Positions 19,334 to 63,150 of a stretch of 64,000 bases of DNA are shown piece by piece. The stretch is from NCBI GenBank assembly GCA_035221665.1, contig CM069132.1, positions 51,212,001-51,276,000 on the forward strand. The letters run 5' to 3'. Origin of the DNA: Okamejei kenojei. Its lineage: Eukaryota. The notes beneath the pieces are model-generated. The model was not told where the DNA came from and did not search any database. It was given only the letters and a program-made list of their open reading frames with translations. The translations under genes were made by a program, and so were the position numbers. Every line of letters starts with the position of its first letter. Within the stretch, counting starts at the first letter, position 1.

Positions 19334-19965
19334 TCCTCACCCATGTCCTTCTAGCTGGTAGTGTTAATGGATATGGAAGCTGCTCTCCAAGGAATCTTGT
19401 TTAAGAAGGAACTGCAGATGCTAGAAAATCAAAGGTAGACAAAAATGCTGGAGAAACTCAGCGGGTGAGGCAGCATCTATGGAGCTCCATAGATGCTGCC
19501 TCACCCGCTGAGTTTCTCCAGCATTTTTGTCTACCTCCACGGAATCTTGGCTTGTTGTGCCATAATGTAGACTGTACAACTGCTGCTACTGTACATTGGT
19601 GGCAGAGTGAGTGAAATGGGTATGAATGAGGTGCATGTCAAACAGGTCAAGGATTGAGTTTGTGTTGTTGAAGACACACTCATCCAGTTAAGCCGAATAT
19701 TCCATCATGCTCAAGACAAATTTTTTAGATAATGGATTGGCTTTGGGGGAAGTTTAGAGTTACTCACTACAAGATTTCAAATCTTTGACCTGATCATGTA
19801 TATTGCTTTTCCAATTCGGTTTCAGGCCAATGGTAACCCTTAGGATATTGGGGGCGGGTTCTGTAATGGTAATGCCATTGAACGTCAGGCGGTAATAGTT
19901 GGATCTCATCATTGTCTGGCAATTGTGCCTAGCAATTGTGAAACTTGCCACGGCATTCTAAACGT
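19334..19965 (-). mobile_element. Older CR1-clade LINE fragment (host of the CR1 and palindromic insertions; continues at 15262-15328)
   Basis: LTFNGITITE...NILRVTI..K.NW motif of the ORF2 C-terminus. Confidence 0.55.
19400..19536. mobile_element. Penelope-type short repeat with a perfect 104-bp palindrome
   Basis: 19433-19536 is a perfect inverted repeat centred on GAG|CTC. TSD CTCCA(A/C)GGAATCTTG at 19385-19399 and 19535-19549. Confidence 0.8.
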
Positions 19966-20144
19966 GGCACGGTATGCAAAACAAAGAAATTCACTGTGAC
20001 ATGTCACATGTGATAATAAAGTATCATTCATTCACCTATCATTTCAGCTATTTTATGAACAGAATTGTCTAAGGATCGTTTAAAGTACTCTCGCTGTGCT
20101 ATTAGGTTGAAATTCCAAGCTCTAAATATAGCATTGATGAAGAA

Positions 20145-20355
20145 TGTCTGGGAAGGAACTGCAGATGTTGGTTAAACCGAAGACAGACACAAATAGCTGG
20201 AGTAACTCAGAGTGACAGGCAGCATCTCTGGAGAGAAGGAATGTTTGACGTTACACATTCAAAGAGGGGTCTCGACTCGAAACGTCACCCATTCCTTCTA
20301 TCCAGAGATGCTGCCTGTCCCACTGAGTTACTCCAGCTTTTTGAGTCTATCTTCG
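20145..20355. mobile_element. Penelope-type short repeat, hairpin form with partial hammerhead motif
   Basis: Inverted arms 20178-20252 and 20281-20355. GGGTCTCGACTCGAAACGTCACCC lies at the loop. ATTGATGAA direct repeat at 20133-20141 and 20357-20365. Confidence 0.75.
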
Positions 20356-20559
20356 TATTGATGAACGACATTGGTCAAGTCCTTAAGTATACAGCTGTCA
20401 GATGCACATTTCGAGCAAATCAAGGTCATAGAGCATTTAGTTGTCATATGCATGGATACAAACAGGAAATGTGCAATTTTTACCCGCTGCAGCTTGAAAG
20501 GCAGATTAGATGCACAACATGGGTATATTCACTTTATCAGGCCTGCAGCGAGAAGCATC

Positions 20560-21800
20560 TGCCCATAATACAAAGTATTACTATCTCACTGTCCTTATGG
20601 AGAAAGTCTTGCCTTCACACTAAGAACAACCTGCATGCACAATTGCATAAACAAACACCTGGCAGCACAGAACTCGATGCCCACAAGGCAATGTGGACTC
20701 AACAGCAGAAGAACCTTGCACCACCCAACGTTACTTGCAGCTAAGCATATTCCACATTCTGCTATGATCGTCGTATTCACTGGTTCAAAGAGCACATGCC
20801 AGGTACAGTATCAGATGTACCCAGAATAGACCAAACTGCACAGAATTACATGCACTAAACATGCGGTATACAGGACTAAGCTGGTCCACATTCAAAAATC
20901 AAATCTCTGGAAACGTGACATTATTAGCCCTGAAAGGTGGTGGACAATTAAACAGCTGATGGGAGAAATTGAGACTTAAAGGAAACTTTCCATTCTCAAT
21001 GACGGTTGGCCCCAGCAAAAGACAAGGCTGGGGAAACCCTATTTAGCCTCAAGTGCCAAGGGAGTGATCCATCTTGATTTCCTCAACATCTGACCATCAT
21101 AAAAGCACGTCTCCAGATACTTTAATTCACTGCACGTTATGCCTGAATACAACAAACGCTACATGACTCTGAATAACATCCTGACTACAGTACTCGTCTT
21201 GTGCTCCATATTAGACCATGCCTCAAGACAAGCTGTTGCAATAGTGACTGCATTGATATCTAATTAACAAAATGTTGAAAACTGTCCACATCTTGTTTAC
21301 AAACAAACAGCATGTCAAATCCATCCTGCTAATTATAAATTAATCTATTCCCAATTAGCAGCAAAGATGTGGATGGTGTGTACGACACAATCAAGCAGAA
21401 CTTTTACTCCAATAACCTGCTCATCATTGCTCATTTTAGTTTTTGCTAAGACTACACCACTCCAATCTCATTATGACCTTGGACCACCTTAAATATTTAT
21501 TCCTTCGATCACCAACACTATGATTACAGCAATTATTCCCCTGGGCTACTCTTGATAATATATCACACACATTACCACCATGGCTAAAGGCAGCAAGCAC
21601 AGTGGAAAACAACCATCTGCATGTTTCCCTCAAGTCCCAGGTCACTATTCGACTGATACCGGGCTTAAATCTTGGAATACCCGACTCTACAGTATTGCAA
21701 CAATGCCTGAACATAAAGGAATGTTTGAATGATTCAAGATGGCAGCTCAACCCACCTTCAAAGGACAATACATTGTGGTTATGCCAGTATTATGCAGATC
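20560..21800 (+). mobile_element. Ancient degenerate CR1-clade LINE
   Basis: Decayed ORF2-like blocks (AAAGGTGGTGGACAATTAAACAGCT, AAAAGACAAGGCTG) and a 3' end TTCAAGATGGCAGCTCAACCCACCTTC. Same family as 19334-19965. Confidence 0.5.
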
Positions 21801-22494
21801 TCAAAACAACACACAAGAAAGAAAATCCACATATTTTATACAAGGAATGGCGTGCAATGTAGCAGAACTGGCAACAGTCTCTAATGCCTGCTGCCTTTTC
21901 TTTATTGGCATCAACAGCAGCCAACGGATGAACTGCTGCTGGAGTGGACAAGAGAGTAACTGCAATCCTTCTGTAGAATTCTCATGCTACATCTGTAATG
22001 GGATACCAAGTGTGTTGCTTTGCTCTTTATGGTGTCAAATGTTGTTGGAACGGCTCTCATACAAGTTTTTCATCAGGTTCCTGACCCAAGTCCTGTGGAG
22101 AAAGACCTGGGGATGACAGAAGACTAATCACTCACTGCAGGATACCCAACCATTTATCTGCTCTTGAACAATGGGTAAATCTCCTCACCCCACTATAAAT
22201 TCAACATTTTTGGCAAAGGATTCCACAATATAAACTCAACACCAAGGACAGTGGTTAAACTTGATCCCTAATCTAACAATTGTATCCGATATCAATCCTT
22301 CACCCTTACCTCGTGTTCAAAAACCTTCGGTTTTCTTCTACTGATTCAGGTCTACAAAAGCTACCTCAGATTCACCAAGACGTTTGTAGCTGACATATGA
22401 AAAAGGTATGAATAACGTGGGAGATGGAAGTGGCATAAGTGACAAATTAAATTCATGCAACACTGGATGATCCTACGAGAGACGACAGAAATAC

Positions 22495-23092
22495 GAAATA
22501 TCAAAATAATCTCGGAAAGTTATTAATATTACTATGATTTATGACCCAAAGTTAATCATACTTGGAATACGGAAATATTACAAGGAATCATAGAACTTTT
22601 ATCGACTATTCTTGGAAAGGCCCTGTATCAATTAAAATGTGGAATACAGAAATCTTCACTTGGGAGATTGAGACTTGTCCTTCATGTTAGATCTCTTCAT
22701 GGATCTACATCACAACGGTTCGGCGCAGGGACTTGACTGAGGCCTGAATATCTGAGTGGATGAAGGTATCCTCCAAGATTGGATTACTTAGAATCTCTCT
22801 ATCTTTAATTAAGAAAAATTATAGAAACAAACTATATAAATTTTTAATATGTCTGTTTGTATGAAAAAGATTATATGTCTTAAACTTGTAATTTATAAAC
22901 TATGTACTTTCAATTATACAATAACTACACGTAGTAAATTAGCGGGGAGTGTATTACTAGGATCATAAATAGTACTAATTAATAATCAATACGTTATAAT
23001 TTTACACTAAATCTCACTTGGTATATACTGTTTCTACAATAAAAAAATATTAAAAAAAAAATTAAAAAAATTTAAAAAATATCAAACACAAA
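22495..23092 (+). mobile_element. Short L1 3'-end insertion with A-rich tail and 25-bp TSD
   Basis: ATCCTACGAGAGACGACAGAAATAC at 22470-22494 and 23093-23117. DPKLIILGI-like ORF2 C-terminal remnant, then AATAAA and an A-rich tail at 23038-23080. Confidence 0.75.
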
Positions 23093-23707
23093 ATCCTACG
23101 AGAGACGACAGAAATACTGGGGAAATTAAGTATTACTGAACATCCTCAAAGGCGTGGATAGCCTTGATATTCATATTCATGAATGTTGTAACAATTAAAT
23201 TCAGAAATAGTAGAATTGGAGGAGCTGTTGGGCTGGGGAGATTACAAAAACCAAGTGAGACAGTCAATATATTTGACAAGAAGAATTAATTTTACAAATA
23301 GCTGCCAGATTTTAAAGCCAGGAGTCAAGTGTGTTTTAATGTTGTACGAAAGAGAACAATGAAATTCCGATATGTAAACGTACTACTCTAAACATAATAA
23401 ATAGCAAATATAAATCAGCAAGCACAAAGGCAATTACAGCAATATGTAAATCAAAATAATGGCACTTTTAAATTAGCTCGAGTTTACATACGATACAGGA
23501 AACCATCCTGAAGAAAGCTGATAAAATCTAGAACCCACAAAAATGCATGGACCTCAAACAATGAGCGGATAAGGATGCATGACATATCTTTATTTGCTGT
23601 GCCTCTCAATGTGATCATCCTGGTACCAGTGTTCAAGATATTTAATGCGTTGAAATCATACAGGGTAAAATCTCTACCATCACCTAATCAATTTCATTTG
23701 TGGTATA

Positions 23708-23952
23708 CAGTGCGCTCCATAGTGTTTGGGACAAAAACCCATCATTTATTTATTTGCCTCTGTACTCCACAATTTGAGATTTGTAATAGAAAAAATAAAT
23801 AAATAAAAAATCACATGTGGTTAAAGTGCATATTGTCAGATTTTAATAAAGGCCATTATATACATTCTGGTTTCACCATGCAGAAATTAATGCTGTGCTT
23901 ATACATAGTACCCCCACTTCAGTGCACCATAATATTTCGGACACAGCAATGT
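23708..23952 (-). mobile_element. Solo right-end TIR of the Tc1 family found at 26296-27792
   Basis: TA-CAGTGCGCTCCATAGTGTTTGGGAC through the inner direct repeat and ACACAGCAATGT. Matches the reverse complement of about 27560-27792. Confidence 0.85.
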
Positions 23953-23954
23953 AT

Positions 23955-24045
23955 AGAGAGAGAGAGAGAGAGAGATCAGCCATGATTGAATGGCAGAGCA
24001 GACTTGATGGGCTGAATGGCCTAATTTGGCTCCTATCACTTACGA
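23955..24045 (+). repeat. (GA)n microsatellite followed by a CR1 3' tail
   Basis: (GA)10, then GATCAGCCATGATTGAATGGC...GAATGGCCTAATT..GCTCCTAT. Confidence 0.7.
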
Positions 24046-24196
24046 CATATTTTGAACTCAAAAAAGTGTCTCTATATCCCCTAAGGAGATCTTAATTTTA
24101 AAATCCATTCACGTTGCCACTTGGTCTTCTCTGTGTTTACAGGCTCCAAAAGTAGCTGGTTTTTATAAACCTAGTGCCCCGAGAGAATTAGACAAA

Positions 24197-24301
24197 TGTT
24201 AGGAAGGAACTGCAGATGCTGGTTTAAACTGAAGATAGGCACAAAAAGCTGGAGTAACTCAGTGGGACAGGCAGCATCTCTGGAGAGAAGGAATTGGTGA
24301 C
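24197..24301 (-). mobile_element. Penelope-type short repeat
   Basis: AGGAAGGAACTGCAGATGCTGG...GGCAGCATCTCTGGAGAGAAGGAAT.GGTGAC, same family as 20145-20355. Confidence 0.75.
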
Positions 24302-26295
24302 AAATGCTAGTTACCCTTCCTTTATTCCAATTTCAGTTTTATCCATCCAATATTTAAAAATTGTGAGATGTTTGACTTCAACCAATGATCTGGCAGGTCA
24401 TTTTCCATGCATCAGTCTTAATGAAACAAAAAATGTGTTCAACATCTCGCTATACTTTTGCCAGGTTACAAACTTGCAGCTTCTTGTCACCAACATGCAG
24501 ATGTGTGTTTTTACAATACTAGGTACAAAAAAAATGTGACATCACATATAATACTGTTCACAAATAAATTTCAACATGATTCAGATTAATCAAAAACCCT
24601 CTCAGCGGCAGTACATGACAGGGAGCGATAATTCATGAAGTTTGAGAAAATTTGACTAATGAACAAAATTCCTAGTTTAACATGGGTTCCTATGCGTTTT
24701 TTTAACGCTTTGTTTGGTGTCCACCATAACAACTGTTACACGGAATTTAGAAAGTCATTTTTTCTAAAGCATGATAGCCGATTTCTTCACTTTCACTGTT
24801 TTTCAACATACAAATGTACTTTCTTGCTGTAAACATGGAGTATGTGACCAAATGAGCAATATTCCTGTTATCTACTGAAACGTGTGTTACACAATGTCCA
24901 AGGGAGAACATCAAAATGTTTGTTTCTTCCAGTATTCTTCAGCTCCTCTTTCTTCCAGTATTTATTTTTTTGTTTAATTTCTTTCTCATGTTTTGAATAA
25001 ACTTTATGGAGGCAATTACCATTCATAATGAGACACTGCAGGTACATAGTTTGTGGAAATATAGCCCCTGCAAAATGCTGGTGTTACGCGTGCATAGCAA
25101 CAAACTTGAAAATATTTGAATTTATAACAAAATTAATGCAGAAATTGCCGCTTTATTTCATTGTGTCAAAGCATGTCACATTTTTGGTGTCCTAAAATTT
25201 GATATATTTAAGATTTAAAATGGGTGAATCAATTCCCAACTTGATTTTATCTCTACTATCTCTTGCACATTTGAGTAACAATCCCTGGAAGAAATAACAC
25301 CATATTAATTGAAACAGTGGAGATATGACATTTTTAATGGTCTGTGCTAAAATCTCCCCAGTATTGCAAAAATACACAGATACTTCCGACTAAATGCTGT
25401 GCATCAAACATCCGGTTTTGAAAGTATTTCCTTTCACCTTTTCACATTTGTAACTGTCCCCTCATTTTGATACATTTTTCATTCATTCGATCCACACGCC
25501 CTTTAGAGCACCTGGAAATAATTCTGAATTAGGACTCAAAATTAGGCACAATATTCAAACTGCTGCACAGCTAACACACTTTGGTATTTTAAATGCCATT
25601 TACAAAAGACATTATCTTGCTTTTGTTTTTATACATTTTTTTATGTTCAAAGCTTATTTTCAAGAATCTATTTAGTTGAATTTTTAATCCTACAAGAATT
25701 ATTTAAAGCTTTACAAACCTGTCCTTTTATTTAAAGTGTATCAATTTATACTAGCTTTAAGTGACCTGATGATAGTTGTCCAATTCACTAACGTGCAAGG
25801 CATACTAAAGATTAAACACGAACGCAATGCACACAAAGCTAGTTAGTTTCTTCTTAAGCATAACATTTTGAATTCACTCAGATATACATGGAGATTAAAT
25901 CAGTATTAAAAAAAAAACTGAAAATAGCAGATGAAGAAACTTTATTTAGCACTTAGATGATCAGAATCTAAATTCCCCAAAAATTAAATATTTCAAGATA
26001 TATTCACGAATGGAAGGAAACCATGTTTCTACATTTTTAAATCAACAAAAAACCCGAGGGAGAAAGTCTTTAAAGAAACCCTTTGAAAACAAAATTAAGT
26101 AGATCCCCCAAATACATTCCCCCAAATATTATTTATATCAACAGAATTGCAGTAGCTGTTGGAACCAATTCGATACAGGTTGTTTGCCTTGGAAATTGAA
26201 CAAATTTAGAACTACATTTAAAGTGTCATTTTGTTTTAGGATTTGGTGCCTTTTATTTCTAGTCGGCATTCTGATATTTAAAAAGCAACTTGGTA

Positions 26296-27792
26296 CAGTG
26301 CCCTCCATAATGTTTGGGACAAAGACCCATTTATTGGCCTAAGTACTCCATAATTTGAGATTTATAATAGAAAAAAAAATTACATGTGGTTAAAGTGCAC
26401 ATTGTCAGATTTTAATACTGGCCATTTTTATGCATTTTGGTTTCACCATTAGAAATTACAGCAATGCTTATACAGAGTCCCATTTCTGGGCACCATAATG
26501 TTTGGGACACATGGTTTCACAGGTGTTTGTAATTGCTCAGGTGTGTTTAATTGCCTCCTTAATGCAAGTTTCCATCACCTTTGCAAACTTTTATTGCTGT
26601 TTATCAACATGAGGTCCAAAGTTGTGCCAATGAAAGTCAAAGAAGCCATTATGAGACTGAGAAACATGAATAAAACTGTCATCAGCCAAGCCTTAGACTT
26701 ACCAAAATCAACTGTTTGGAACATCATTACGAAGAAAGAGAGCGCTGGTGAGCTTACTAATCGCAAAGGCAGTGGCAGGCCAAGGAAGACCTCCACAGCG
26801 GATGACAGAAGAATTCTCCCTCAAAGAAAAATCCCCAAACACCTGTCCGACAGATCAGAAACACTCTTTGGGAGTCAGGTGTGGATTTGTCAATGACCAC
26901 TGTCACTGCCGCAAAAATAGGATGGTCAGGTTATAGTTTGCCAAGAAGTGCGTAAAAGAGCAACCATAGTTCTGGAAAAAGCTCTTGTGGACAGATGAGG
27001 TGAAGATTAACTTATATCAGAGTGATTACAAGAGCAAAGTATGGAGGAGAGAAGGAACTGCCCAAGATCCAAAGCATACCACCTCATCTGTGAAACACGG
27101 TGGTGGGGGTGTTATGGCTGCTGAAGGAACTGGCTCGCTTATCTTAATTAATGGTACAGCTGCTGATGTTAGTTGCATAATGAATTCTGGTGTGTAGACA
27201 CATCCTATCTGCTCAAGTTCCATCAAATGCTCCAAAACTCATTGGCCAGCAGTTCATTCTATAGCACGACAATGATCCCAAACATACTGCTAAAGCAACA
27301 AAGGAGCTTGTCAAAGTGAAAAAATGGTAAATTCTCATGACCAATCACCCAATTTGAACCCAATTGACTATGTTGAAGAGAAAATTGAAGGGGACTAGCC
27401 CCCAAACCAAGCATAAGCTAAAGATTGCTGCAATACAGGCTGAGCAGAGCATCATCAGAGAAAAAACCCAGCAACTGGTGATGTCCATGAATCACAGGCT
27501 TCAAGCAGTCATTGCATGCAAAGGATATGCAACAAATATTAAACATGACTACTTTCATTTACACGACATTGCTGTGTCCCAAAAATTATGGTGCCCTGAA
27601 ATGGGGGGGACTATGTATAAACACAACTGTAATTTCTACATGGTGAAACAAATGTATAAAAATGGCCTTTAAAATCTGACAATGTGCACTTTAACCACAT
27701 GTATTTTTTTCTATTACAAATCTCAAATTGTGTCGTACCGAAGCAAAAAAATAAATGATAGGTCTTTGTCCCAAACATTATGGAGGGCACTG
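26296..27792 (+). mobile_element. Complete but decayed Tc1 element of IR/DR type
   Basis: TA-flanked TIRs of about 215 bp (CAGTGCCCTCCATAATGTTTGGGAC) with inner direct repeats. Transposase from ATG 26609 with GRPRKT, WTDEVK, VKHGGG and HDNDPKH motifs; multiple stops and frameshifts. Confidence 0.95.
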
Positions 27793-29859
27793 TAGATGCA
27801 GTAAATAACTCTATTCATCCAAGTGCTTGGGAAAGCCTTAAGTTCATCATGTGACTGGGATCTCTCTTTAATTTTAGCTACAGCTGTTTAGATAGTATCA
27901 CAATGGGTCTTAGTCCAACTAGTTTAGCAAGAAAGGAAAGAAATCAAAGTCCCCAATACCAGTAGGTGACCTTTTAAAGTACATAATTGGGCAAAAACAA
28001 GCATGCTCTCCACTTCTTTATTTATCAGCTTTTACATATGGGCAAAGTAAATCCTGCTGCCAGCACTATCATACCCAATAATAAAACATTCAAGCAAATC
28101 ACCAGTTTCTGCACACAAATGTTAACAAAATTAAAGATTAGGATGTATTCATTTGAGTAAGTTAAGGATCGGCGAATGAGAATATAGTAATCCAATTAAC
28201 AATTTTCAGCAGAAAGACTAGTATCAATGAAAATGACAAATTGATAAATATTTGTTCCAAGTTTATTTTTTACCTGTCAATCTGTTTAAAAAACTGGCAA
28301 GAAATGTAGTAACTCAAATTCTTTATATTATGCAATATTAAAATGATTTTTAAGCTGTTTGGATAAATCATACATTTGACTATGTGGAAGTTGTATGCTC
28401 AATTCTTGGCTTCCCCAAAACTTATATCTGCACAACTTCTTATCAAAGTAATAATTAATCATCCAGAAAACATTCATTAGCTTCATTGTATTTCATTTCA
28501 GCTGCTTGCTCTTTTTCGATCAATTGCAGCTGTTGCAATTAGAGTCACTTGCCCAGCAAATCAAGAATAGTTTACACATTTACTCAAAAACGGCTTTAAA
28601 TCTGCAATGGTAGCAGGGAGTTGGAGGAATACACAGGTGGTCATTGCAGAAAGAAAATAAATCGCTATTTGCATATAATTCAACACTTGGTCAAAGAGTC
28701 ATTTTCAGTGATATGTGATTAAAGACTAAAACATTTATTCTGACAAACTTGTCACAGTGTTTTTTTAAGATTCCCCATTTACAAAGCACAATACTTAAGA
28801 AATCTAATAAGAATTGTAAACACATTATTTCATTACTGCCATTTTGGGTTACTCAAGTGAATGATTAGCTAAAAAATGTAATCACACATTTCTAATTTTT
28901 ATTTGAACTCTGAGGAGGGTTCTCACTGCAAACAGAAGTTGCAATGAATAGAATGACTTCAAATAGTTACATGGCAGGAATTTAGTTAGTTCAGTACATT
29001 ATTTATTATTAAGCTATATTGCTACAAAGTGGCGATTATAATTCCACTCATATTGATAGAACATTTCTAACAAAACGTTAGTTTTGAAAACTGTAGGTGA
29101 TACATTTAAGTTAAAATTTGCAATTGATAATTTATTCAAATGTTTTTAGAATAACCAGTGAGAAACAAAAAAGTATTAAACTGGCTAACTTATGAATACT
29201 AAAAGAAATGCATCCACAAATTAAATTTACACTCACTTTTAATTGATCTGTGTGAGAGATGGTCTATCTCAGAAGAAGCCTCAAAAGCAGGACCCCCAGG
29301 GTGGTTATCTCCAGTTTCTCGTGCTGGTGAGGGCAGGAACAGGGAGATAGGGGATCTGAATGCGCGGCTGAGGAGCAGGTGCAGGTGGCAGATATTTAGA
29401 TTCTACGACCACTGGGATCTGTTTTGGGGCACGGGTGAATTGTACAAAAGGGATGGGTTGGACCTTAACAGACAGGGGACCAGCATTCTGGCAGGCAAGT
29501 TTGCCACTGCTACATGGGTGGGTTTAAACTAAATAGGCAGGGCCGGATTTACGTATAAGCTAGACAAGCTTAAGCTTAGGGCCTCGCCCCGCTCATCCAA
29601 GGCGTATAAAACTTTTGACATATTCGTATTTTCTGAACCTTGTCCTTTCAACAGTCTGGAGTGTTGGAGTCAGTGCGCGGCTGCAAGTTTAACAATGTCA
29701 GAACCAGCTCCAACTGTGCCCGACCTGCCTGCTTCAGGGGAGAAGAGATAAGGCTCCGCGCGAGGTAAAGGGTGGGTGGGAACGAGCAGACACCTGCTAC
29801 GATAGGCGGAATGGTCCTTTCTATAGTTAACCCTGCTCACAGTCTCTGATGGAGCTGGT

Positions 29860-30326
29860 TTCCCGCCCACCGGGACCTCCCGCTGACCCTCGCCATTCCA
29901 TCGCCGTCCAGCAGCCATCGCCTTACCTGCAGCCTGGACCTGAGGTTTCCACGCTGCAGACTCCAACTCCCCAGAGTTTGACTGGGCTGGGTCCTGGTGC
30001 TAGTCTCCTAAATCCTGGTAACCTCAGTGGCTGTTCTACTGGGTATTCCCCATTCCCCTCAAACCATGTGACCCCAGCTCTTCCCCACCCACACTACAGT
30101 CCTCATACCCCCTGACCACCCACCACCAGACATTGCCTCTGCCTCAGTCCACTCACCTGCCTACCTCTGGCCCCAACCCCCATCCCTGCCGTGTGTTCAC
30201 CATCCCCCCTGACCTCCCCCTCTCAGATACCGAACGGTCTGTCCGCAGCAGAGGCCTCACCCTTGTCCCCCTCCGTCCCCACCTCAATGAGTTCCGCGCC
30301 CGCCGCGATTTGGAGCTCTTCTTCCG
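29860..30326 (+). mobile_element. Penelope-like element ORF N-terminal fragment inside the hAT element
   Basis: C-rich segment encoding RVFTIPPDLPLSDTERSVRSRGLTLVPLRPHLNEFRARRDLELFFR, resembling the LSxGLxFxP motif that precedes PLE reverse transcriptases. The left boundary is approximate. Confidence 0.6.
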
Positions 30327-42329: not shown

Positions 42330-43480
<1,151 letters not shown>

Positions 43481-44924: not shown

Positions 44925-45017
44925 TGGATGAAGGGTTTTGGCCCGAAACGTTGCCTATCTCCCTCACTCCATAGATGCTGCTGCACCCACTGAGTTTTTC
45001 CAGCATTTTGTGTACCC
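44925..45017 (+). mobile_element. Penelope-type short repeat with hammerhead-like motif
   Basis: GATGAAGGGTTTTGGCCCGAAACGTTGCC...CTCCATAGATGCTGC...CAGCATTTTGTGTACC. Confidence 0.7.
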
Positions 45018-51000: not shown

Positions 51001-52314
51001 CACATTTGTTCTGATATTTCAAAATGTTCTATACAAATTCATAATTTAGGCACAATCTTTCCAAAGTGAAAGGTGGAAATTTGGAGTCAGGATATCAAAA
51101 AATAAACAAAAACAAATGTTGACTACATCAGGCAATATCTGTGGCGAGAGCAATGGAATATAGGTCCCTTCATCAGAACGGAGTCCATGGATTTCAATAA
51201 CCAGTTTATACCCACCATTGTGCTAACAACTAGATTTCTAAATTCTGTTATAGTATTATGCGTACATTTAATAATTTGCAGTTTCTGTGAATCGTGGGAA
51301 AGCTGGTGAAAGGTCTTACATTTTTTAATTACAAAATACAATTGCCTATGTATCTGCAAACTTCCCACTACCAACAAAAATTAGTGCTCTGTTAATGGTC
51401 ATGTTTCCACTTAGAATTGATTTGAACAGCTTCAAATACTTTTTTTTTAAATCATTCCACATGTATATCAAATGATTCAAACTATAAATATGTTGGTGAG
51501 ACTATTAATCTCATAACTTGTGAATGAAATAATCATTAGTCTGACAACAGACGGATCGGGACCTTGATCAATTAAGATTTTGTACTTAAATATTTAATAC
51601 CATCTTTAAAGTAATTAGACTTACTTTTTCACTGTTAAAGTTCATCAAGGCTAATTTAGCCTTCTACATTTAAATAGGGAAAAAAAGATACAAATTCAAG
51701 AGAAAGCACATCTCAATTTGTTGTATCTAGATTCCAATAATGTACATAAGCCAACAGAAAAATAAGATGCAGTCAGATTTAATATAAATTTCACAATGTA
51801 TAGAAAAACAAAGGTGATGACTTTAACATAAGTGTTTAGTGGAAAGGTGGACAATAAACAGTACCACCAACTCTATTAAAGACTGGTGTTGAGATGCTTA
51901 ACAGCAGTTAGTAAGGAGTCGTGATACAGCAGAAATAATAAATGGCTGCCTTGCATTAATCATCACTAACTGCTATTATTAATAAAGGTTTTATTAGTTT
52001 GTTATAAAGATGATTTTAGCCCAGTAAGAATTGCCTACCTGAGAGTTATTAATACGTTATCACGTAAGATGTTTAGAAATACTAAAGTCTTCAGGAATTG
52101 CCAGTAACCTTTAACAATATCCATTCTTTAGTGGATTTGGATCAGCTGGTTATCTTTGATTGTCATAAGTATTAATTTAGGACTATTGCTATTTACCATT
52201 TTAGTAAAGATAGAGTTGTAGGCTTTAGAATAATCCACAAATTTACAAGCAAGACAAAGCCCACGTGTAAGATTTATAGATGTTGTGGACACTTGAAACT
52301 AAACGGCTATAGAT

Positions 52315-52447
52315 CAGTATGAAGAAGGGTCTTGAATGGGAAATGTCACCCATTCCTTCACTCCAGAGATGCTGCCTGTCCTGAGTTACACCAGCATTTT
52401 GTGTCTACTTTTGATTTAAACCAGCATCGGCAATTCTTTTCTGCACA
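52315..52447 (+). mobile_element. Penelope-type short repeat with 9-bp TSD
   Basis: GCTATAGAT at 52306-52314 and 52448-52456. Internal GAAGAAGGGTCT...GTCACCCATTCCTT. Confidence 0.75.
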
Positions 52448-53799
52448 GCTATAGATAAAATCAAGACTGGGATAGTATTTGACATTTTCTGGTATTAACA
52501 AAAGCTTTTCACTGTACCTTGGTATACGTGATAATAATAAACTAAACTTTGCACAGCATGAAATGTATATATAAATAAATAAACCAATATAGATATGATT
52601 AATCTTTTGAAAAAGATGTGGATTTTTGAGAGACTAAAAATGGCAATCAAATTGAACTATTGAAATTGCACAAATTGTGCAACTAACGGGTTTAGTTTAT
52701 TGTCACATGTACTGAAGTAAACAGCCTTAATACAGGCAGGTACAAATGTTGCTAATTGAGACATCCATGCTTCAAGATTGGTGCTGAGCTGGTTACACTT
52801 TAAAACATTTTTTTGGTTTTGAAGCTGCAACATTTAAGTCCAAAGATTTTAGACATACGATTTTATGGCTAGATTTCACTTTATGTTCCAAGTCCATTTC
52901 TGGTTCCATTGGAGACCACGACGATCTAACTTCTCTTCCTTACGAAGGAATTTGAGATAATCAATCAGAGATATTTAAAAAATGAAGGAAAAAAGATTAT
53001 TCCAGAATATTTTAAAATTAATTGTTCTGTAACCTCATAAGTTGAAACTATCAAATATAACTGCTAGGATAACATCAGAATGAAACTTAATTAAACACAA
53101 AGAATTAGCAGTCCAAACCCTAGAATCATCTAAAATATTCAGATCAAGGTTCTCAAAGATCTCTAATTCCTGTCATGGCTGTCCAACACAAACACTTCAA
53201 ATTGATGTCCTATGCATAGAACCCAATATAACAGAGCTTCTATCTTGGGAGGGCGAGGGGAGCGGGTAGTATTCCATCTAACTTGACAACCAGTTAACTA
53301 AATCCATGCAATAAGGACGTCCATGCATCTAAATTTTGTTTTTATCATACTTTAAATTTATTTATCTCAGAAGGTTTAGAGGATTTGGCCATGGCCACAA
53401 ATATGATTGTAAGTATGTGCTAGTGCGGTGTTGCAGAAGTACACAATAGAGGTGGTTCCTTTGGTTAATGGTGAATGTGAATGGAATTCCAGAAGGACAT
53501 TACTATTGAACACCACACATTTAAAACAACTGGATGTTGAACTAGGAGCAGAATTATCATCTTTCTGGCAGGATGAATCAGTGGGTTAGATGTTGTTCCA
53601 CAAATATAAGTAATCCATGCAAGGTGGTGCATTTGATTCAAAGTGCTCAAAAGTGCTAATTCTGTATTTTGTTTAAATGGAGAAAGAACAAACTAGAATT
53701 TTAAAAAACATTTTCACCACCATCTGGCACATCTTGCTTTATTAAAACTAATTTTGAACCTGGGGCAATGTGGTCCTTCCATAAGGTAGGTACTGTCTG

Positions 53800-54013
53800 A
53801 GTTCCCTCTACCTCATTGCAGACATTGGATGTTGTCTCTGGGACTATTGCACTATAAAATTATAATCATGCACTCAGCACCTTTTCCTTCAGTCAACTAT
53901 TGTACTTGAGTTTGACTTAATTCTTTTTGTGTATAGTATTTTCCCATTTCATTGGATCACATACAAAATAAAGCTTTTCACTGTACCTCAGTAAACATAA
54001 TTCTAATAAACCT
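53800..54013 (+). mobile_element. LINE 3' tail family (AAAGCTTTTCACTGTACCTC..ACGTG..AATAAAC)
   Basis: The same tail recurs near 1415-1470, 19975-20030, 52500-52548 and (minus) 52692-52720. Clade uncertain (L2 or Rex-like). Confidence 0.5.
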
Positions 54014-54015
54014 TT

Positions 54016-54105
54016 GATAGACACAAAAAGCTGGAGTAACTCAGCGGGACAGGCAGCATCTCTGGAGAGAAGTTTCTGGGTGACGTTTCGAGCCGAGACC
54101 CTTCT
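54016..54105 (-). mobile_element. Penelope-type short repeat
   Basis: Minus strand reads AGAAGGGTCTCGGCTCGAAACGTCACCC. TAATAAACCT direct repeat at 54004-54013 and 54110-54119. Confidence 0.75.
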
Positions 54106-54647
54106 GTAATAATAAACCTGATGCATGTGATTAGAGCAACCATGATACTCGTTTTCATACTTTAGTGTCAATACTGTTTTAGGCATCTCTTTTCTAGTCC
54201 TATTTCCAATTGAACATTAATAGTTGCATAAGTGTTATTAGTAAAGTTTCCCAAAATCTTTGTGGTTTATTTTTGTGCAATGTCTATTTGTAAACATGCT
54301 ATTAATGTGCAGTGAGACACTCTTAAGGCAATGAAACAATTGATACAACTAGTACTGAGCAATATGTAATCTGCCTGTTATGGATAAGAACTCAACATCC
54401 CTGTATAACGTCCCTTCTTTGACAATCAAAGCATCATCCTCATTGAATTTTCCCACCATCATGAATCTTGTGAGTTACCATTTCCTCTAAAATAAATGAA
54501 TCATTAGTGTCTCACAAATTGTTAGTATCACAAATAGTATATCCAGCATAGATAAAGTTGGAGTATTTTCTAAAATGACTTCAACTTCCAAAGTATGTAA
54601 TATATTCGCAACTTTCCTGGAAAAGTGTAAAAGCCTACAGCACTCGA

Positions 54648-54900
54648 GATAGAAACATAGAAACATAGAAATTAGGTGCAGGAGTAGGCCATTCAGCCCT
54701 TCGAGCCTGCACCGCCATTCAATATGATCATGGCTGATCATCCAACTCAGTATCCCGTACCTGCCTTCTCTCCATACCCTCTGATCCCCTTAGCCACAAG
54801 GGCCACATCCAACTCACTCTTAAATATAGCCAATGAACTGGCCTCAACTACCCTCTGTGGCAGAGAGTTCCAGAGACTCACCACTCTCTGTGTGAAAAAA
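54648..54900 (-). mobile_element. CR1 3'-end fragment
   Basis: (ATAGAAAC)n terminal octamer and FFTQRVVSLWNSLPQRVVEA C-terminal peptide. Confidence 0.9.
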
Positions 54901-55487
54901 GTCACATGAGATGACTTAACTGAGATGATTAAACCACCTAATATAAAGTGGCCTGCAAAACTAAACCTGAGGGGAAAGGTTGCCTCCATTATCCCTGACT
55001 CTTCCCACAGAGTTTGAATCTGTTGATGATGCTTCTTTCACAATGTTTTGCAAACTGGTAATGTTTTACTCTTTGAAGGACAAGGATATAAATTTTATTT
55101 CTTTAAGCACAGATTGTAGCTCAAGCTCACTATACCTACTGCTAAGTGGGTTTGGATGCAGTTAATAAATACTCACTTTGCCCTTGAGATCCACATTTCA
55201 GCTATCCAAAAGAAATTGTACATAAACAAAAACACTAGAGTGAAACATTAGATGATAGTGTTCTACCACCATACAGAACCAGTACAAGTTAATGTTTTTA
55301 CAATATCACTTTAGTAAAAAAGCTTTTGACAGAATTACTGAAGTGAATTGAGTGACAACTGCTATTGATGCATTTTTCCCTTCTATATACCTAATACACA
55401 TCTACAACATTGCTAATTAAGTTTGATAATATTAGTATACATTTAAAGAATGATTCCAATTTTCTGCAGCTGCAAAATTTAATGTGC

Positions 55488-55825
55488 AGCACAGTGTCGC
55501 AGTGAATAGAATTGCTGCCTCGCTGCTCCAGTGACCCAGATTCAATCCTGACCTTTGACATTGCCAGGGCGGAGGTTGCATATTCTCCCTGTTGCCACAT
55601 GGATTTCTTCTGGTTGTGCTGTATTTTCTCTCATTATCCAGAGATTGGAGGTGGGTGGTAGGTGAAATGTTAATTGGCAAATGTAAAATGCTCTTAGTGA
55701 GTGGTAGAATATTGGAGCTATTGGGAATGGGGGGGATAATAAAATGAAACCAGTGTAAATGAGTGTTTGATGGTCATCTTGTATCAGTGGATTAAAGAGC
55801 ATGTTTCTGCACTGGATAACTTCAA
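55488..55825 (+). mobile_element. tRNA-derived V-SINE (HE1-like), degenerate
   Basis: tRNA-like head (GCACAGTGTCGCAGTG...GACCCAGATTCAATCCTGACC), V-domain-like GGAGGTTGCATATTCTCCCTGT and a CR1-like tail. Confidence 0.6.
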
Positions 55826-56267
55826 GACACTCATCTCTTTAACTGAAGATGTTTTCATACTGCAGCAACCTTTCAGTATTGCTTTCTAAAGAACCTATTT
55901 TCCCCTGATGACTTAAGTCTGGGAATAAGGCACTATAGCATCTAAACTCCACAACCTGTCCTGATCATGATATATAAACATGTAGGGATATGTCTAGAAT
56001 TTTTTTTTAATGAAATCTCCTCAATTAATACCAAAAAGAAGCAAGATTTTAGATAACCTAAAATACTGTAGCTACCAAAACTACAGAACCATGAAGTGAA
56101 TTGGAAATTAATTGATCAGTTAGTAAAGAATTAAAATTTATAGTGTTCAACATAATGTAGTGATTGCATGCAAGGTTAATTTTGCAATAATTTGTTGAAA
56201 ACACAAAGTTTGAATCATTAAAATTTACTATTTTATGAATCAAATATAACAGCTTATTGATTTCAAT

Positions 56268-56390
56268 GAGACTGAAGAAAGAGTCCAAACCAAAACGTTG
56301 TCTGTCCATTTCCTCCACAGCAGCTTCCTGACCCACTGAATTCCTCCAGCACTTAGTATTCTGCTGGTGGTTTAAAAACTGCTTCTGCAT
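56268..56390 (+). mobile_element. Old Penelope-type short repeat
   Basis: CTGAAGAAAGAGTCCAAACCAAAACGTTG...CCTGACCCACTGAATTCCTCCAGCA. Confidence 0.55.
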
Positions 56391-57495
56391 TCCCTGAAAT
56401 ACATTAAACTGAAACCATCAGCTGGAATATGATTTCAAAGGGTTACTTTGGACAGGTTACAATTTTGAGTTGTTTTAAACCTTTGAATTTACCAACATCC
56501 TAACAGGTGTTTCTTTCTAGTAACTAGAAATTATTTTATGATGCACTCAGAGATTATACCTGGCTTGTGCAAAATAAGTCAATTGATACATGTTTGCCAT
56601 AGTGTGCTGTTACTTCCCACCACTCTAGTAAGTATTTGACAGAAAATTCCTGATACACAATTTCATTATGTAGTGAGCATGATATTTTATAAATTGGTAC
56701 ATTAAAGAGCCCAGGAAAGAAGCCATCAATATGTTCTTTGTGTATTAATCTTCAACATCAAATAGGAGAGTTGTCACACCCCTTACAAATTATTGCTGTG
56801 AGATGTTACCTTCATTCCAGAGTAAATTCTGAATTGAGGAGAGGGCTAAGATCTCACAATATCTTGTAAGTTAAATGATGAAAATAAAGGATTACATTTT
56901 CTTGATCTGTGCCTTCTTCAAGGTAGTGATTCAACATTCAGATAGTATTTTGAAATGACAGTCCTGAGGAAGTATGCTTTTTGCTTTGATGCAAAAATCC
57001 TTTTAATTGAGGCATTAAACTGCAACATGTTTTATTCTGAGAAAGTGATGACAAAGGTGGTTTCAGCATCCTAATCAAACTTTTTTTAAAAAGCACCTTA
57101 CAGCTTTCCACATAAAATTCTATTTAACAAATGGAGCTCTATCATTTTAAAGCAAACCTTTGTGAAATAGCAACAACATACAGGAGGCATGCCTGGTTGG
57201 GGAACAGTATTGAAAGGAGTGCTGCAAGACTTGCTGTTAGAATTACTGCTGCTCTCATTGATATCATTAACCATTTTGAAAACACGGCAAATTAGTGAAT
57301 TTTATAAGTGCAAAAATAGAATAGAGGGGAACAGAATAAAAGTAACAAATTAGTGGATTATTTAAATTTTGTATGTGGACAGAAAATGAGCTATTTAAAT
57401 TGCAACTTACAAGAAATGTCATACGAGCAATATATCATCCATAAATAGCATAGTAAAGTGCGATAGTAAAGGAGCATAGTAAAGGAGTCAGACTT

Positions 57496-58160
57496 TGTGA
57501 ACTCAAGGACAAGCTTTATTAAACAAAAAAAAAACAACGGGGCAGCAGGGCACACCCTCTACTTCCTTTCCAACCTCAGTCACGTGCCTCATCACATGAT
57601 AAAGGAGGGTTTGAATAACCAGTGGCCCGACCACCAGATGGTGCCACACGACACCCCCCCCCCCCCAGAACCAGAGGAACAAAAGCGAGCAGGCGGACGA
57701 ATGCGCGGCCTCGCCGACACCCGACTGATAGAAAAGGCACCCTACAGTTTGTGCCGCAGCTCGTCGGCACATTCAGCCAGCCGCAGGGGGTCAGCAAAGT
57801 CCTCACCTTGCGAGGAGCAGGAAGATGTCCTCAGGCGTCTGCTCCAGAAACACGTGGAAAAAGGAAACGGTCTGATGACAGTCCATCAAGGTGAGCATTT
57901 CATTCATCAGATCCGACGGCTTGTGATCACCGAGACCACCCATGTGCTGAAACCGAGAGTCTGCAATAGGAGCACCTTCAGGCCGTCATACTAGCCGGCG
58001 GCTGGCGAAGAAAATGAACAAGATGACCGGCCGTGTCCTGATCCAAGGGCCCGATCACGCAATAATATTTTGTATCGTCAGCAGTAATGTGCCGAATATG
58101 AAATTGAGCCTTGGCCTGCTCAAACCATATGTGCAGCTGCGACGTCCAAAACACGGGCAA
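57496..58160 (-). mobile_element. Internally deleted Gypsy LTR retrotransposon (gag N-terminus, PPT, 153-bp 3' LTR)
   Basis: LTR TG...CA at 57648-57496 with AATAAA, preceded by a G-run PPT (57653-57666). Gag peptide PVFWTSQLHIWFEQAKAQFHIRHITADDTKYY...GDHKPSDLMNEML. Confidence 0.8.
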
Positions 58161-60200
58161 TTTAATCTTTCCTCCCAGCTATTCTTTGAGATTAATAAAC
58201 CAAATTCATCTTCCCATGCTCGCCCATGCATTTCAGAAGATGGGATGTGTGCAATTAAAAGAGTATTGTAAATGTAGGATTTTAACTTACTTGTATCCAC
58301 CTGTCTATTCATGCATTCGTCTAATATATCTGGACCCATAGAATGACAGTCTTGTGTATGTGTTTTCACATAGTGTCGGATTTGAAGACATATTAAAAAA
58401 AATACTTGCTTTCAAACGATATTTCTCCTGTAATTCTTGAAACAAGAGGAAAGTCCCCTTCACATAGATATCTCCCAGGATTTTAATTCCTGAGTTTTTC
58501 CATTGTGCAAACGCCTTATCTAAAGTAGATGGTTTAAACAAGGGATTGTTAGCGATTGGTAAAACGTGAGAGGAATTTCTCAGTTTGAGGCTTGATTTCA
58601 ACTGTTTCCAAATTCGTGGGGTGCTATGTATTATCGGATTTTGCTCATACGTTGATTTATTCAGGTGTGTTGGAGAAAGAAGAATCGAGCCTATATTAAA
58701 AGGTAAACAATCTTCCCTCTCCATTTTTAGCCAGTTTACCTGTTGACATGTATCTTCCATCCAGTAGATTAAGTTTTTAATATTAGTCGCCCAGTAATAC
58801 AAAAGGAAAGTGGGGAGTGCTAATCTTCCATTTTCTTTTCCATTTCCATAAGTGTCGTTTATGTATTCTATGAGTTTTATAGTCCCAAATGAAATTTGTG
58901 ATAACAGAGTAATTTTTTTTTTTTAATTTTAGGGAGATAAATCGGTATTGATTGATTATATAGGAGTTGTGGAAGGAAAATCATCTTTATGGCATTTACT
59001 CTACCTATAAGGGAAATATGGAGTGTTTTCCAAAATTGAATGAGGGCATTTAATTTAGTAATTAATGGTGGGAAATTTGTTTGAAATAGAGAGGTATATT
59101 TTCTAGTCACGTAGACTCCAAGGTAGATTTTTCAGTGACAATTCTGAAGGGAATTTTTTGGAGATGTAAAGGATCTTGAGCTTTTATTGGCATAATTTCA
59201 CTTTTATTCCAGTTTATTCTATACCCTGAGAAGGAACCAAATTGTTCTATAAGGTTTAATATATTTGGGATACTGACTTGAGAGTTGGTGATATATAAAA
59301 GTACATCATCTGCATATAACGAAATCTTATTATTGGTATGTTTAGTATTGTATCTGTGAATGCCTGGATGTACTCTTATGTTTTCTGCTAAGGGTTCTAT
59401 GGCTAAGGCAAATAACATTGGTGAAAGAGCACATCCTTGTCTATTACCCCTGGATAATTGAAATTTAGGTAACAGAATTTGATTAGTCAATATTCTGGCA
59501 GTCGGATTGTTATATAACAATGCTTTATCCATGAGATAACATTTTCTCCTAGTGGAATTTTTCCAACGCTGTAAAGAGGTAGGCCCATTCTACTTGGTTA
59601 AATACTTTTACTGCGTCTAAAGAAATAATTGTTAAGACTTCATTTATCGTTTTGTGTGAATACATTATATTAAACAGGCGTCTCAAATTATGAAACGAAT
59701 GTCTCTTAGGTATAAACCCAGTTTGGTCTGGATGTATTAATTGACTAATGTATGAAATTAGTCTTCTTGCAAAAGTCTTAGCTAATATTTTCTGATCTGT
59801 ATATAGAAGAGCTATTGCTCTGTATGATCCAGGCTCTTCAAGATTTTTGTCTTTTTTAGGTATCAATGTAATGGTTTATTTGGCTAGTTTGTGGTAAGGC
59901 CTGTTCTTTAAAAGCATGTATATAAAGGGTTCGTAGGCATGGGGAAATTAAGTCATTACATTTTTTATAGAATTCATTACTGAACCCATCTGGACCTGGC
60001 GTTTTCCCACTATTCAGTGATTTGATAGTCTCTTCAATATCTTTTATTGTAATCTCAGCTAATTCTTCTTGTTCCTACTCATTAAGTGATGGGAGGTTGC
60101 AATTATCAAGAAAGTTTTTGATCTTTGCAGAGTCGGCTAATGTTTTTGATGCATATAAATTTTGATAGAATTTTAGGAATCTTTCGTTAATATCTTTGGG
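58161..60200 (-). mobile_element. L1 ORF2 fragment (RT domain)
   Basis: [39 protein letters not shown] and [11 protein letters not shown] motifs. Truncated at both ends. Confidence 0.92.
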
Positions 60201-60469
60201 ATATTTTAAAATCTTCATCAGAAAAGATCTCTTCACACGCAGTGGTGTGAATTTTCACATGGAACAGGGGATGAAATGCAGAAATAATTAAAAAAATAAT
60301 TGCATATTATGTGAAGTAAAATTATTTGAAGTAAAATACCTGGTATCTTCCAGGATTGCCTATAGAATAACAGAGGCTACATTAAAAAAAATGTTCATAG
60401 CTGTTCAAAGTCCCAAGGATCAAATATAGTTTCTCACGATCAAGATTGATTTTGTTCTGCACTAGTTCT

Positions 60470-60750
60470 TATGTGGCAAGTTCTGATGTTGTAAAGCTGG
60501 AAAGGGTATCGAGAAGATTTACAAGGATGTTGCCAGGGCTAGAGGGTCTGAGCTGTAGGGAGAGGTTTATTAGGCTGGGACTCTATTCCTTAGAGCACAG
60601 GAGGATGAGGGGTGATCTTATTGAGATGTATAAAATCTTGAGAGGAATAGATCGGATAGATGCACAGAGTCTCTTGCCCAAAGTATGTGAAACAAGGGCC
60701 AGAGAAAATAGGTTTAAGGTGAAGGAAAAATTATTTAATTGGAATCTTTT
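60470..60750 (+). mobile_element. CR1 ORF2 C-terminal fragment
   Basis: KLERVSRRFTRMLPGLEGLS..ER..RLGLYSLEHRRMRGDLIE. Confidence 0.88.
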
Positions 60751-60788
60751 TTGGCACGTGCATCTTTAATCGGCAGTGAATTCACTTT

Positions 60789-60888
60789 CAGTCTGAAGAA
60801 GGGTCTCGACCTGACATGTCACCCATTCCTTCTCTCCAGAGATGCTGCCTGTCCCGCTGAGTTCCTCTAGCTTTTTGTGCCTAACTTC
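60789..60888 (+). mobile_element. Penelope-type short repeat with the best-preserved hammerhead-like core
   Basis: GT-CTGAAGA-A-GGGTCTCGACCT-GACA-TGTC-ACCC at 60791-60824. Confidence 0.75.
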
Positions 60889-63150
60889 AATGCATATACT
60901 CGGCACGGCCTCTAAATGACCTCTTGAAAGGGAACCGGGCATCAGGAGAAAATATTTCTCTTACTGAGGGACAACAGGAAGCATTCACTTCTCTAAAGGG
61001 GGCCCTTTCCTCTGCACCTGCACTTGGAATTCCCGATAATAGTAAACCTTTTACATTGTTTGTCAACGAGAAGGATGGATATATGACGGCAGTCCTCACT
61101 TAGGAGCATGGAGATCAACAAAAACCCATTGGCTACTATTCCACTAAATTGGATAACATTGCCTTGGAATGGGGAAGCTGTATGCAAGCTGGTGAAGCTA
61201 CGTGTTGTGCTGTCATGACAACCACAGGACTGTTACTGGATCAGAAATTTACTGTTAAGCGGCCCTATTCTGTGTATATTTTGCTCTCCATGAACAAAAT
61301 ATTACAGGTAACTTGCTCGATACTGGCGGTACTGGAAGCCCCAAACCTCCACATTGTCCATGCCAGTCCAGTCAACCCATCAAAGATGCTCCCGCTTCCT
61401 GAGGAGCAAAGGGGTGAAGACGGGGAGTATGACTGAGTTGACATTTTGGAAGAAATTGAATAATCCAGCCAAGCAGCAGAGAAACCACTAGAAAATCCCG
61501 ACCTCCTTCTCAATACTGTTAGTCCCTCCTTTGTGGATAATGGTGCCTGAAAAACAGGATGAGATGTTACAAATCAGCATTAGATAATAGCGAAAGGCAG
61601 TCTACCAGCAGATACCTACCAGCTCAACAAGCAGAATTATGAGCGTTTGCTAAGGCATGTCAGATAGCAGAAGGAAGAACAGCTAATATCTATACTGATT
61701 CCAGGGACACCTTTGGAAGTCACCCATCTTTGCACAGTTGTGGCAGAAAAGAGATTTCCTCACAGCAATGGAGATGCCTATCCAAATTAGGAAGGAAGTT
61801 CAGGAGCTTCTGGAAGCTATTTGTCTCCCACAAGAAGTTGCTATTCTTAAATGCAAGGCACATACGAAGGATGATACTTAGAAGCCCGGGAAAATGCAAT
61901 GGCTGATCAGGCAGGTCGGGAAGCTGCCTCTTTAATCTTGCCTACTGATGATCAGATGCACTTCAACAAGCTTAAGACTCCAGATATGTCGAGATTGAAA
62001 GAAATGCAAGACAACTGCTCCAGAGAAGAAAATTGGACGGATTGAGGATCATAAGATCATGTGATAGGAGCAGAATAAGGCCAATCAGCTCATCAAGTCT
62101 ACTCCACCATTCAATTGTGGCTAATCTGTTTAGGAAGGAACTGCAGATACTGGTTTAAACTGAAGATAGACACAAAATGCTGAAGTAACCCAGCGAGACA
62201 GGCAGCATCTCTGGAGATAAGGAATGGGTGACGTCTGAGATCAAAGCCCTTCTTCAGACTGAGTCACAGGAAAGGGTAATGGGAGGCTGACCGATCTCTC
62301 CCTCCTAACTCAATTCTCCTGCCTTCTCCCCATAACTTCTGGCATCCGTACTGATCAAGAATCTATCTCTGCCTTATAAATATGCACTGACTTGGCCTCC
62401 ACAGCCTTCTGTGGCAATGAATCCCACAGATTCACCACCCTCAAAGGAGGGTATTAAAGTGTGCTCCAATGGCTTATAGAGATGGGAAAATACAAGGACA
62501 ACCAGTTGCTCCACACGCATTAATGCATTATTTGGCTCACCAAATTCCTGGGGCCATCTGGTTCCATTACAAATGGTAACCTGGTTCCAAAGAAACTGGT
62601 GAAGTTATGGATTTCAAAGATATGCCCAGCATGTCTATGCCCCATATTTCCCTTCCTAAGTGCCAACGGTACATTGGAGATTTGGCCATAGTGGACTGAT
62701 TCTCACGATGGGCGGAAGCTGTCCCACCTGGACAGGCTACAGCCGCGCACACTGCTAAAGTACTATGTAAAGACAATATCCCAAGATAGGGTATCCCCCT
62801 CTACCATTGACTCAGGTCAGAGTATACACTTTACAAGTACTGTTTGTATGGAAGTCTGCAGACATCTGAACATTACCTAGGATTTACACTGTCGCATTTA
62901 GCCACAGTCCTCTGGTCTGGTTGAACGCATGCTTTGCACTACAAAGGATCGCCTAACTAAATATCACCAAGAGGGAATGCCATGACCACTGGCCCTCCCC
63001 ATTCTCTGATGTGGTATTAGGGCCTGTCCGAATCGAACAGGTCTGAGCCCCTTTAAAGTTTTACTCGCAGACCCATGTCACTGTCAGGAACCTTAAACTT
63101 GTGAAAAGCTGATTATCATCTTATGAGTGATGCTCTTTTAGAATACTGCT
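60889..63150 (+). mobile_element. Class I (gamma/epsilon-like) endogenous retrovirus pol remnant: RT connection, RNase H, integrase
   Basis: LARPLNDLLK, AFTSLKGALSSAPALGIPD.SKPFTLFV and PIGYYSTKLD; RNase H AQQAEL, ANIYTDSR, VAILKCKAHT and NAMADQA; integrase FSRWAEAVP, TIDS....HFT and PQSSGLVERM. Many stops and frameshifts. Confidence 0.85.
62047..62441 (-). mobile_element. CR1 3' fragment inside ERV pol, itself interrupted by a Penelope-type repeat (about 62127-62285)
   Basis: CATAAGATCATGTGATAGGAGCAGAAT tail and the RVVNLWDSLPQKAVEA peptide. The inner element reads CAGTCTGAAGAAGGGC...GACGTCACCC on the minus strand. Confidence 0.85.

Follow-up and report, generated by a model that had tools for sequence, protein, structure and literature searches.

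Copies of the hammerhead-tail repeat in the window

In the 64,000-nucleotide stretch of DNA from Okamejei kenojei analyzed here (assembly GCA_035221665.1, contig CM069132.1, positions 51,212,001 to 51,276,000 of the forward strand; hereafter designated the window), short repeats carrying remnants of a hammerhead ribozyme motif followed by a tail are dispersed on both strands. The repeat belongs to an autonomous Penelope-like element (PLE) having a Neptune-type linker, of which it comprises the end of the pseudo-long terminal repeat (pLTR) and the 5′ leader. An initial annotation, made from the letters of the window, had listed nine copies and two fragments inside GC-rich units, and all of these were recovered in the window by a search with a profile of 15 natural genomic copies of the hammerhead-tail unit. 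The search gave 15 matches at E ≤ 1, of which 14 were at E < 0.001, including one copy that had been overlooked (1764–1896), and the same profile found 0 matches in 400 kb of reversed sequence.

The copies listed at 19400 and 20145 are head-to-head pairs. The former (19396–19541, both strands) consists of tail pieces that form a perfect 52-bp palindrome without a hammerhead core, flanked by an exact 9-bp target-site duplication (TSD); the latter (20144–20359), also with an exact 9-bp TSD, joins a minus-strand copy (20144–20253) to a plus-strand copy (20262–20359). In the profile alignment, this plus-strand copy and the minus-strand short copy, or stub, at 54006–54105 (exact 10-bp TSD) keep GAAACGTC and have lost CTGA, and the 60793 copy (60787–60895, plus strand) keeps CTGAAGA and most of stem II with GAAA changed to GACA, as the initial annotation had stated. 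At 52313–52448 (plus strand), a full stub begins at −4 and reaches the far tail end; its core is mutated, and an exact 9-bp TSD abuts CAGT. The stub at 62126–62276 (minus strand) likewise reaches the far tail end and includes about 19 bp of the upstream pLTR, its GAAA box and stem II being broken. The remaining plus-strand copies found with the profile are a stub of the GTT/GCC subfamily in which C3-U4 are missing (44927–45016), an old diverged stub (56268–56396, E = 6e-11), and the overlooked copy at 1764–1896, which is old and has a broken core (E = 1e-8; also found by blastn).

A tail copy on the minus strand (24198–24301, profile match) starts at, or at most 3 bases before, the predicted cut site. 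Its TSD is 8 bp when exact and 12 bp with one mismatch; counting all 12 bp as target sequence would make the copy start at the first base after the predicted GUC cut. Three junction bases are compatible with either side, and no peak at this site is seen among random genomic copies. The two fragments in GC-rich units lie on the plus strand in a larger duplicated unit, of which the copies at 607–853 and about 4406–4656 are 75% alike, each with a decayed hammerhead-tail piece: 662–757 in the first (E = 2e-9) and the tail-only fragment 4489–4560 in the second (E = 8e-4). Here, a stub was captured, and then re-duplicated, by another repeat.

None of the profile matches inspected in the window retains the whole hammerhead core, in agreement with the initial annotation. 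A pattern scan of the window for both catalytic boxes matched no family member, and no individual window copy has the full set of features of a minimal hammerhead. The window copies are probably inert and decaying neutrally.

Exact TSDs of 8–10 bp were found at five of the ten window insertions examined (19398, 20145, 24196, 52313, and 54007), reaching 15 bp when one mismatch was allowed; no exact TSD of at least 8 bases was found at 44925, 56266, 60787, 62126, or 1777. The proposed variability of TSD length was borne out across loci, where lengths ranged from 8 to 16 bp and 14 of 75 short copies had an exact TSD of at least 9 bases, compared with 1.05 expected from shuffled pairing. The short-copy sample kept matches that started at profile position 10 or lower, ended at 88 or higher, and scored at least 60 (251 copies), with omission of 13 loci overlapping other loci, including the window's own stretch.

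The hammerhead motif and its parent element

The 30-nt core composed by overlaying the window copies has 14,101 exact matches in the genome (2.76 Gb), whereas the reversed control has 0; the composite is thus a real sequence and not an artefact of the overlay. Both catalytic boxes, the ACGU, and their spacing are kept at 101,657 genomic sites, against 2 for the control. In a random sample of forty 10-kb stretches chosen at round-number positions (400 kb), we found 154 fragments of the family, which extrapolates to about 1 million genome-wide. Among the 86 core-spanning copies of this sample, 30 keep the letters of the boxes and 8 are fully intact, and the core positions most often changed are those of CpG. 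Because of this preference and the small number of intact cores, the genomic copies appear to decay neutrally.

The motif proved to be that of a PLE-linked minimal type I hammerhead, as had been proposed, with CUGANGA and an extra base, GAAA, a palindromic ACGU, and an NUH triplet. The defining features, namely the G10.1–C11.1 pair, the palindromic 15.2–16.2 positions, and the canonical NUH spacing, are present in intact elements and at the 101,657 sites. The predicted helix I has 2 bp and helix II 4 bp; in 30 aligned copies, 98% and 93% of their cells, respectively, can be paired, and the common variants are A-to-G changes leaving wobble pairs. Such motifs in the pLTRs of metazoan PLEs, and their scattering in great numbers as solitary motifs, have been on record since 2014 (Cervera and De la Pena 2014, PMC4209133); this and the following comparisons refer to the accessible portions of the cited sources. 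The present motif agrees with the published one in CUGANGA with one extra base, the G-C pair closing helix II, GAAA, the palindromic C-G, the NUH, and the lack of helix III, and it has the C-G-U-C form of those of fugu, Xenopus, and Culex. Also as in those elements, it stands in both pLTRs, and single motifs come from truncated elements, some in opposite-strand pairs. Its helix lengths are at the low end of the published table, as in Culex and Drosophila. It differs in being nearly invariant in the present genome and in its number, 101,657 sites with intact boxes, compared with about 4,000 in coelacanth and about 9,000 in Xenopus, as counted with the descriptor of those authors. The words 'shark', 'Callorhinchus', and 'Leucoraja' are absent from supplementary file 2 of that paper, and in the part of the literature available to us there was no paper on this PLE hammerhead family in cartilaginous fish, although it may well be catalogued.

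The hammerhead helices are absent from the predicted monomer fold and from the consensus fold, in which RNAalifold preferred an alternative pairing, and unconstrained cofolding formed no hammerhead dimer. An Rfam search, as suggested by the initial annotation, gave no hammerhead match at E ≤ 10 in the window or in positions 3500–3900 of L189, a genomic locus with an intact element; its miRNA-type matches at 19446–19523 of the window are the palindrome described above. Published PLE hammerheads show no activity as a monomer and weak activity as a multimer, and in the PLE of Anolis, cutting is assisted by protein and is not required for insertion, according to the accessible text. The poor monomer fold and the Rfam result fit this picture and are no proof of activity here; the hammerhead is likely to be weak and dependent on a dimer or a protein. 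In the fold predicted for L189:3649–3787, the far tail end folds back to pair with the bases at which the hammerhead begins. The tail also holds an internal 8-bp inverted repeat kept in about 96% of cells without compensatory changes, and neither of two tail helices showed a two-sided compensatory change in the 30 aligned copies.

The proposed association of the motif with a PLE open reading frame (ORF) for reverse transcriptase (RT) and GIY-YIG endonuclease (EN) was established from both directions. Starting from exact cores, the end of a GIY-YIG frame lies upstream in 7 of the first 30 loci; starting from the endonuclease, the motif stands about 80–125 nt past the stop codon in 27 of 30 loci, judged by eye and with the query counted as one locus. 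An RT search detected frames of up to 1,197 codons. Two intact elements, at loci L187 and L189, have a unit of 3,954–3,955 bp with the motif in both pLTRs, and the near-intact L191 and L192 likewise have it at both ends. The unit runs in the order of pLTR, hammerhead, tail of 95 or 130 nt, 1,197-codon frame with RT and GIY-YIG, pLTR, hammerhead, and tail, the direct terminal repeats of intact elements being about 500–900 bp. In L187 and L189, the first ATG lies about 160 nt downstream of C3, and the 3′ copy ends at +95. Because intact RT and GIY-YIG units carry the motif in both pLTRs, the window repeat is assigned to the end of an autonomous element. L192 (G000:C13:43641000-43650999) is young and full-length; about 1.46 kb of its interior is directly duplicated, which makes its unit 5,415 rather than 3,954 bp.

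Pfam matches of the 1,197-codon frame to RVT_1 (E = 5e-6) and GIY-YIG (E = 0.004) are both below the curated cut-offs, and a PDB sequence search with the RT-EN part returned 0 matches at E ≤ 1. As read from the translation, a single ORF encodes RT and, C-terminally, a GIY-YIG with a CCHH finger, a CxxC lies inside GIY-YIG, and a CX4CxxC linker is present in L189 and in a further locus, L004. This organization matches that of EN+ PLEs of the Neptune type (Craig et al. 2021, PMC8557442), which have one ORF with RT and C-terminal GIY-YIG, the CCHH finger, and a CX2-5CxxC linker between RT and EN; a linker finger is also found in Nematis, and the placement in the Neptune clade is putative. Partial-tandem pLTRs, an inverted truncated copy, and an optional 30–40-bp tail are further features common to EN+ PLEs, whereas the long proline-rich stretch before RT distinguishes the present frame from the elements of that paper. 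The family is young in part: 40 ORF-start copies are 99–100% identical, a 31-mer of one subfamily has 31,741 exact matches in the genome, and young stubs are 97–100% identical to the tail of the intact element.

End points of the stubs and their origin

The end points of young copies were read from the first 78 distinct matches to the 31-mer along contig 1, of the 31,741, in which starts beyond +15 are invisible to the pattern. The 3′ ends fall at two places about 35 bp apart, +90–95 (45 of 78) and +126–132 (22 of 78), and 28 of the 78 copies have an inverted partner. At the 5′ side, 41 of the 72 copies reaching +8 end between −8 and +8, giving a rate of 5′ ends at the motif edge of 0.034 per base, 10 to 45 times that found upstream (0.0007–0.003). 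Copies running on into the ORF stop at this edge significantly less often (5 of 25; Fisher p = 0.002); these came from the 30 ORF-containing loci best matching by identity, not from a random set, after leaving out 5 that start 3′ of +8. In the random 400 kb, 92 of the 154 matches start at profile position 10 or lower, and a peak at the cut site was absent, with 2 of 154 starting near it and 0 ending there, suggesting that cut RNA is rarely the template.

The TSDs, head-to-head pairs, and paired 3′ ends are known PLE traits; the unusual point is that most pieces begin at the front edge of the motif. A close published counterpart is PAc, a Poseidon element of Anolis carolinensis (Frangieh et al. 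2024, PMC11167929), in which the hammerhead also lies just upstream of the tail, the tail is delimited by two internal sites of RT initiation that correspond to its two ends, the dominant template is uncut RNA, and no reads end at the cut site. The ORF of PAc starts inside stem II, whereas here the tail is untranslated, and a pile-up of 5′ ends at the motif edge is not described in the accessible portion of that work.

From these data, we consider it probable, at roughly 80%, that the repeats are decayed ends of autonomous PLEs; the short pieces likely arose when RT primed in the leader ran off an uncut RNA at the motif edge. In such a process, the endonuclease would nick the target and RT would begin at either tail site, by analogy with the Anolis element (Frangieh et al. 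2024; accessible part). The RNA would start near YCAGT at the front edge of the motif. As the leader tail site would then be only 95–135 nt from the RNA 5′ end, RT starting there would run off and leave a stub, and RT starting at the 3′ tail would give long, randomly truncated copies. We give even odds to this particular scheme, in which RNA starting at YCAGT yields stubs from the leader tail site and long copies from the 3′ tail. The YCAGT sequence is initiator-like. The broader proposition that PLEs in general shed 'strong-stop' stubs by internal priming, with leader-primed RT acting on RNA that starts at the hammerhead and the resulting 95–135-bp cDNA being integrated, is tentative and falls slightly short of even odds. 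Several autonomous subfamilies seem to have given rise to the stubs as by-products.

Several observations weigh against leader-primed run-off. The putative RNA start is deduced from the ends of genomic copies, and the 24 runs consulted, most of them only presumably of RNA, consist of assembled contigs, which cannot reveal 5′ ends; the starts occupy a stretch of about 14 bases (−7 to +6) and are not fixed at one base. Of the ORF-containing copies, 20 of 25 extend upstream of the putative start, which requires additional templates of the read-through, tandem, or circular kind. A tail-length test for leader origin revealed no difference, the far tail end being used alike by long (51 of 118) and short (34 of 75) copies (p = 0.88; p = 1.0 in the random subset). 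In Drosophila virilis, Penelope transcription starts 46 bp ahead of an intron of 75 bp that ends directly at the hammerhead, which places the known PLE promoter away from the motif edge. As to the motif itself, a compensatory change was seen in 0 of 6 hammerhead pairs and 0 of 18 pairs overall among the 30 aligned copies, whose close similarity leaves little for such a test to detect, and a shuffled control was not exceeded; in monomer folding, stem II is paired with a probability of only about 0.01 because its GGGU tends to pair instead with the far tail or with the bases that follow the cut site.

The spread of the starts and the equal use of the tail would also be expected if the stubs were ordinary 5′-truncated copies primed at the 3′ tail, their pile-up reflecting a pause or template switch of RT caused by RNA structure or by the pyrimidine- or C-rich tract upstream. 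The back-pairing of the far tail onto the first bases of the motif predicted for L189 and a certain edge excess among ORF-containing copies (5 of 25) are consistent with such a pause as well. A local block should, however, act on every pass alike, and stops at the edge were seen in 57% of the terminal but 20% of the internal passes (p = 0.002), so that a uniform block fails to explain the edge. Moreover, the edge is common to subfamilies whose upstream tracts differ, and we regard this explanation as rather unlikely. The motif edge might instead be a 3′ splice site (YAG|T), as in D. virilis, where the intron ends at helix I, with a splicing intermediate or branch point setting the start of the stub; a pyrimidine tract, CTGAC or CTAAC, and CAG do precede the motif in several subfamilies. 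The one junction tested, joining the GT of the ORF stop with the CAG that precedes the motif, had 2 matches genome-wide and was rejected for that donor only. No upstream exon is common to the 75 short copies, none of the 15 joints listed, of 93, connects GT..AG to the AG at the motif edge, and many starts lie 3′ of the AG. These results make a splicing origin very improbable.

Propagation of the stubs by themselves, as a non-autonomous family resembling short interspersed elements or retrozymes, transcribed from dispersed stubs and mobilized in trans, would account for the defined 5′ edge, the TSDs, and the roughly 1 million fragments extrapolated, and the machinery of PLEs is able to work in trans on sequence bounded by pLTRs, according to the accessible text of the sources. 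Non-LTR retrozymes (Li, Clavereau, Pollet 2026, bioRxiv 10.64898/2026.07.22.740005; accessible part), which derive from pLTRs and are reported in the one chondrichthyan genome sampled, are likewise pLTR-related, hammerhead-bearing, and non-coding. They are defined as tandem arrays in which every unit bears a hammerhead, whereas the copies of the window, about 100–135 bp long, are scattered or paired head-to-head and consist of sequence common to the autonomous elements; no array of units that each bear a type I hammerhead was found within the window. The three commonest tail variants of the short copies are also found on copies attached to the ORF or pLTR, and 0 of 75 short copies have a common upstream flank abutting the motif. 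These counts, together with the 97–100% identity of young stubs to the tail of the intact element, argue against a distinct family, which the initial annotation had proposed and which we consider improbable, although some stubs may have been mobilized secondarily in trans.

Neighboring repeats and significance of the stubs

Among the other repeats, the window contains a fragment of the same PLE's ORF (pre-RT region) without an attached pLTR (29879–30326, plus strand; 77% DNA identity to L189, tblastn E = 5e-42). It sits inside another repeated element, as its flanks are common to other loci. This element, extending from 29538 to beyond 31000 and carrying the 450-bp ORF piece, is presumably a hAT-like DNA transposon, judging from its end and a GQSYD motif, with no Pfam match. 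The chimera is common to most of 30 related loci, with differing junctions, and a search for the 5′ end of the parent PLE using window positions 29953–30200 returned mostly this other element. Large inverted duplications occur at 13322–14137 and 17184–17994 (96–97% alike) and at 6706–7233 and 10558–11090 (73–85% alike); the former overlaps frames of a LINE (long interspersed nuclear element) endonuclease and encloses a Tc1-type transposase frame (14389–14976). Related direct and inverted repeats beginning with TACAGTG (23706–23857, 26294–26426, and 27705–27794) resemble Tc1/mariner ends. Elsewhere in the genome, a 588-codon frame, presumably an NLR-type immune gene, adjoins two Penelope insertions (L066:172–1935), and the insertions of another small contig (L069) are near-identical to those of L066.

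The locus itself matters little, being occupied by inactive repeats of a type already described. For the role of the PLE hammerhead and the mechanism of PLE copying, however, the intact, very young elements with their near-identical stubs are a resource of some value: the end points of the stubs constrain the start of the RNA, the start of RT, and the question of RNA cutting, and together with the intact elements their statistics make the copying mechanism testable. If PLEs do shed stubs by internal priming, the approximately 1 million fragments would preserve, like fossils, the place where transcription begins and the two sites of RT initiation, and would demonstrate that the template keeps its ribozyme uncut.

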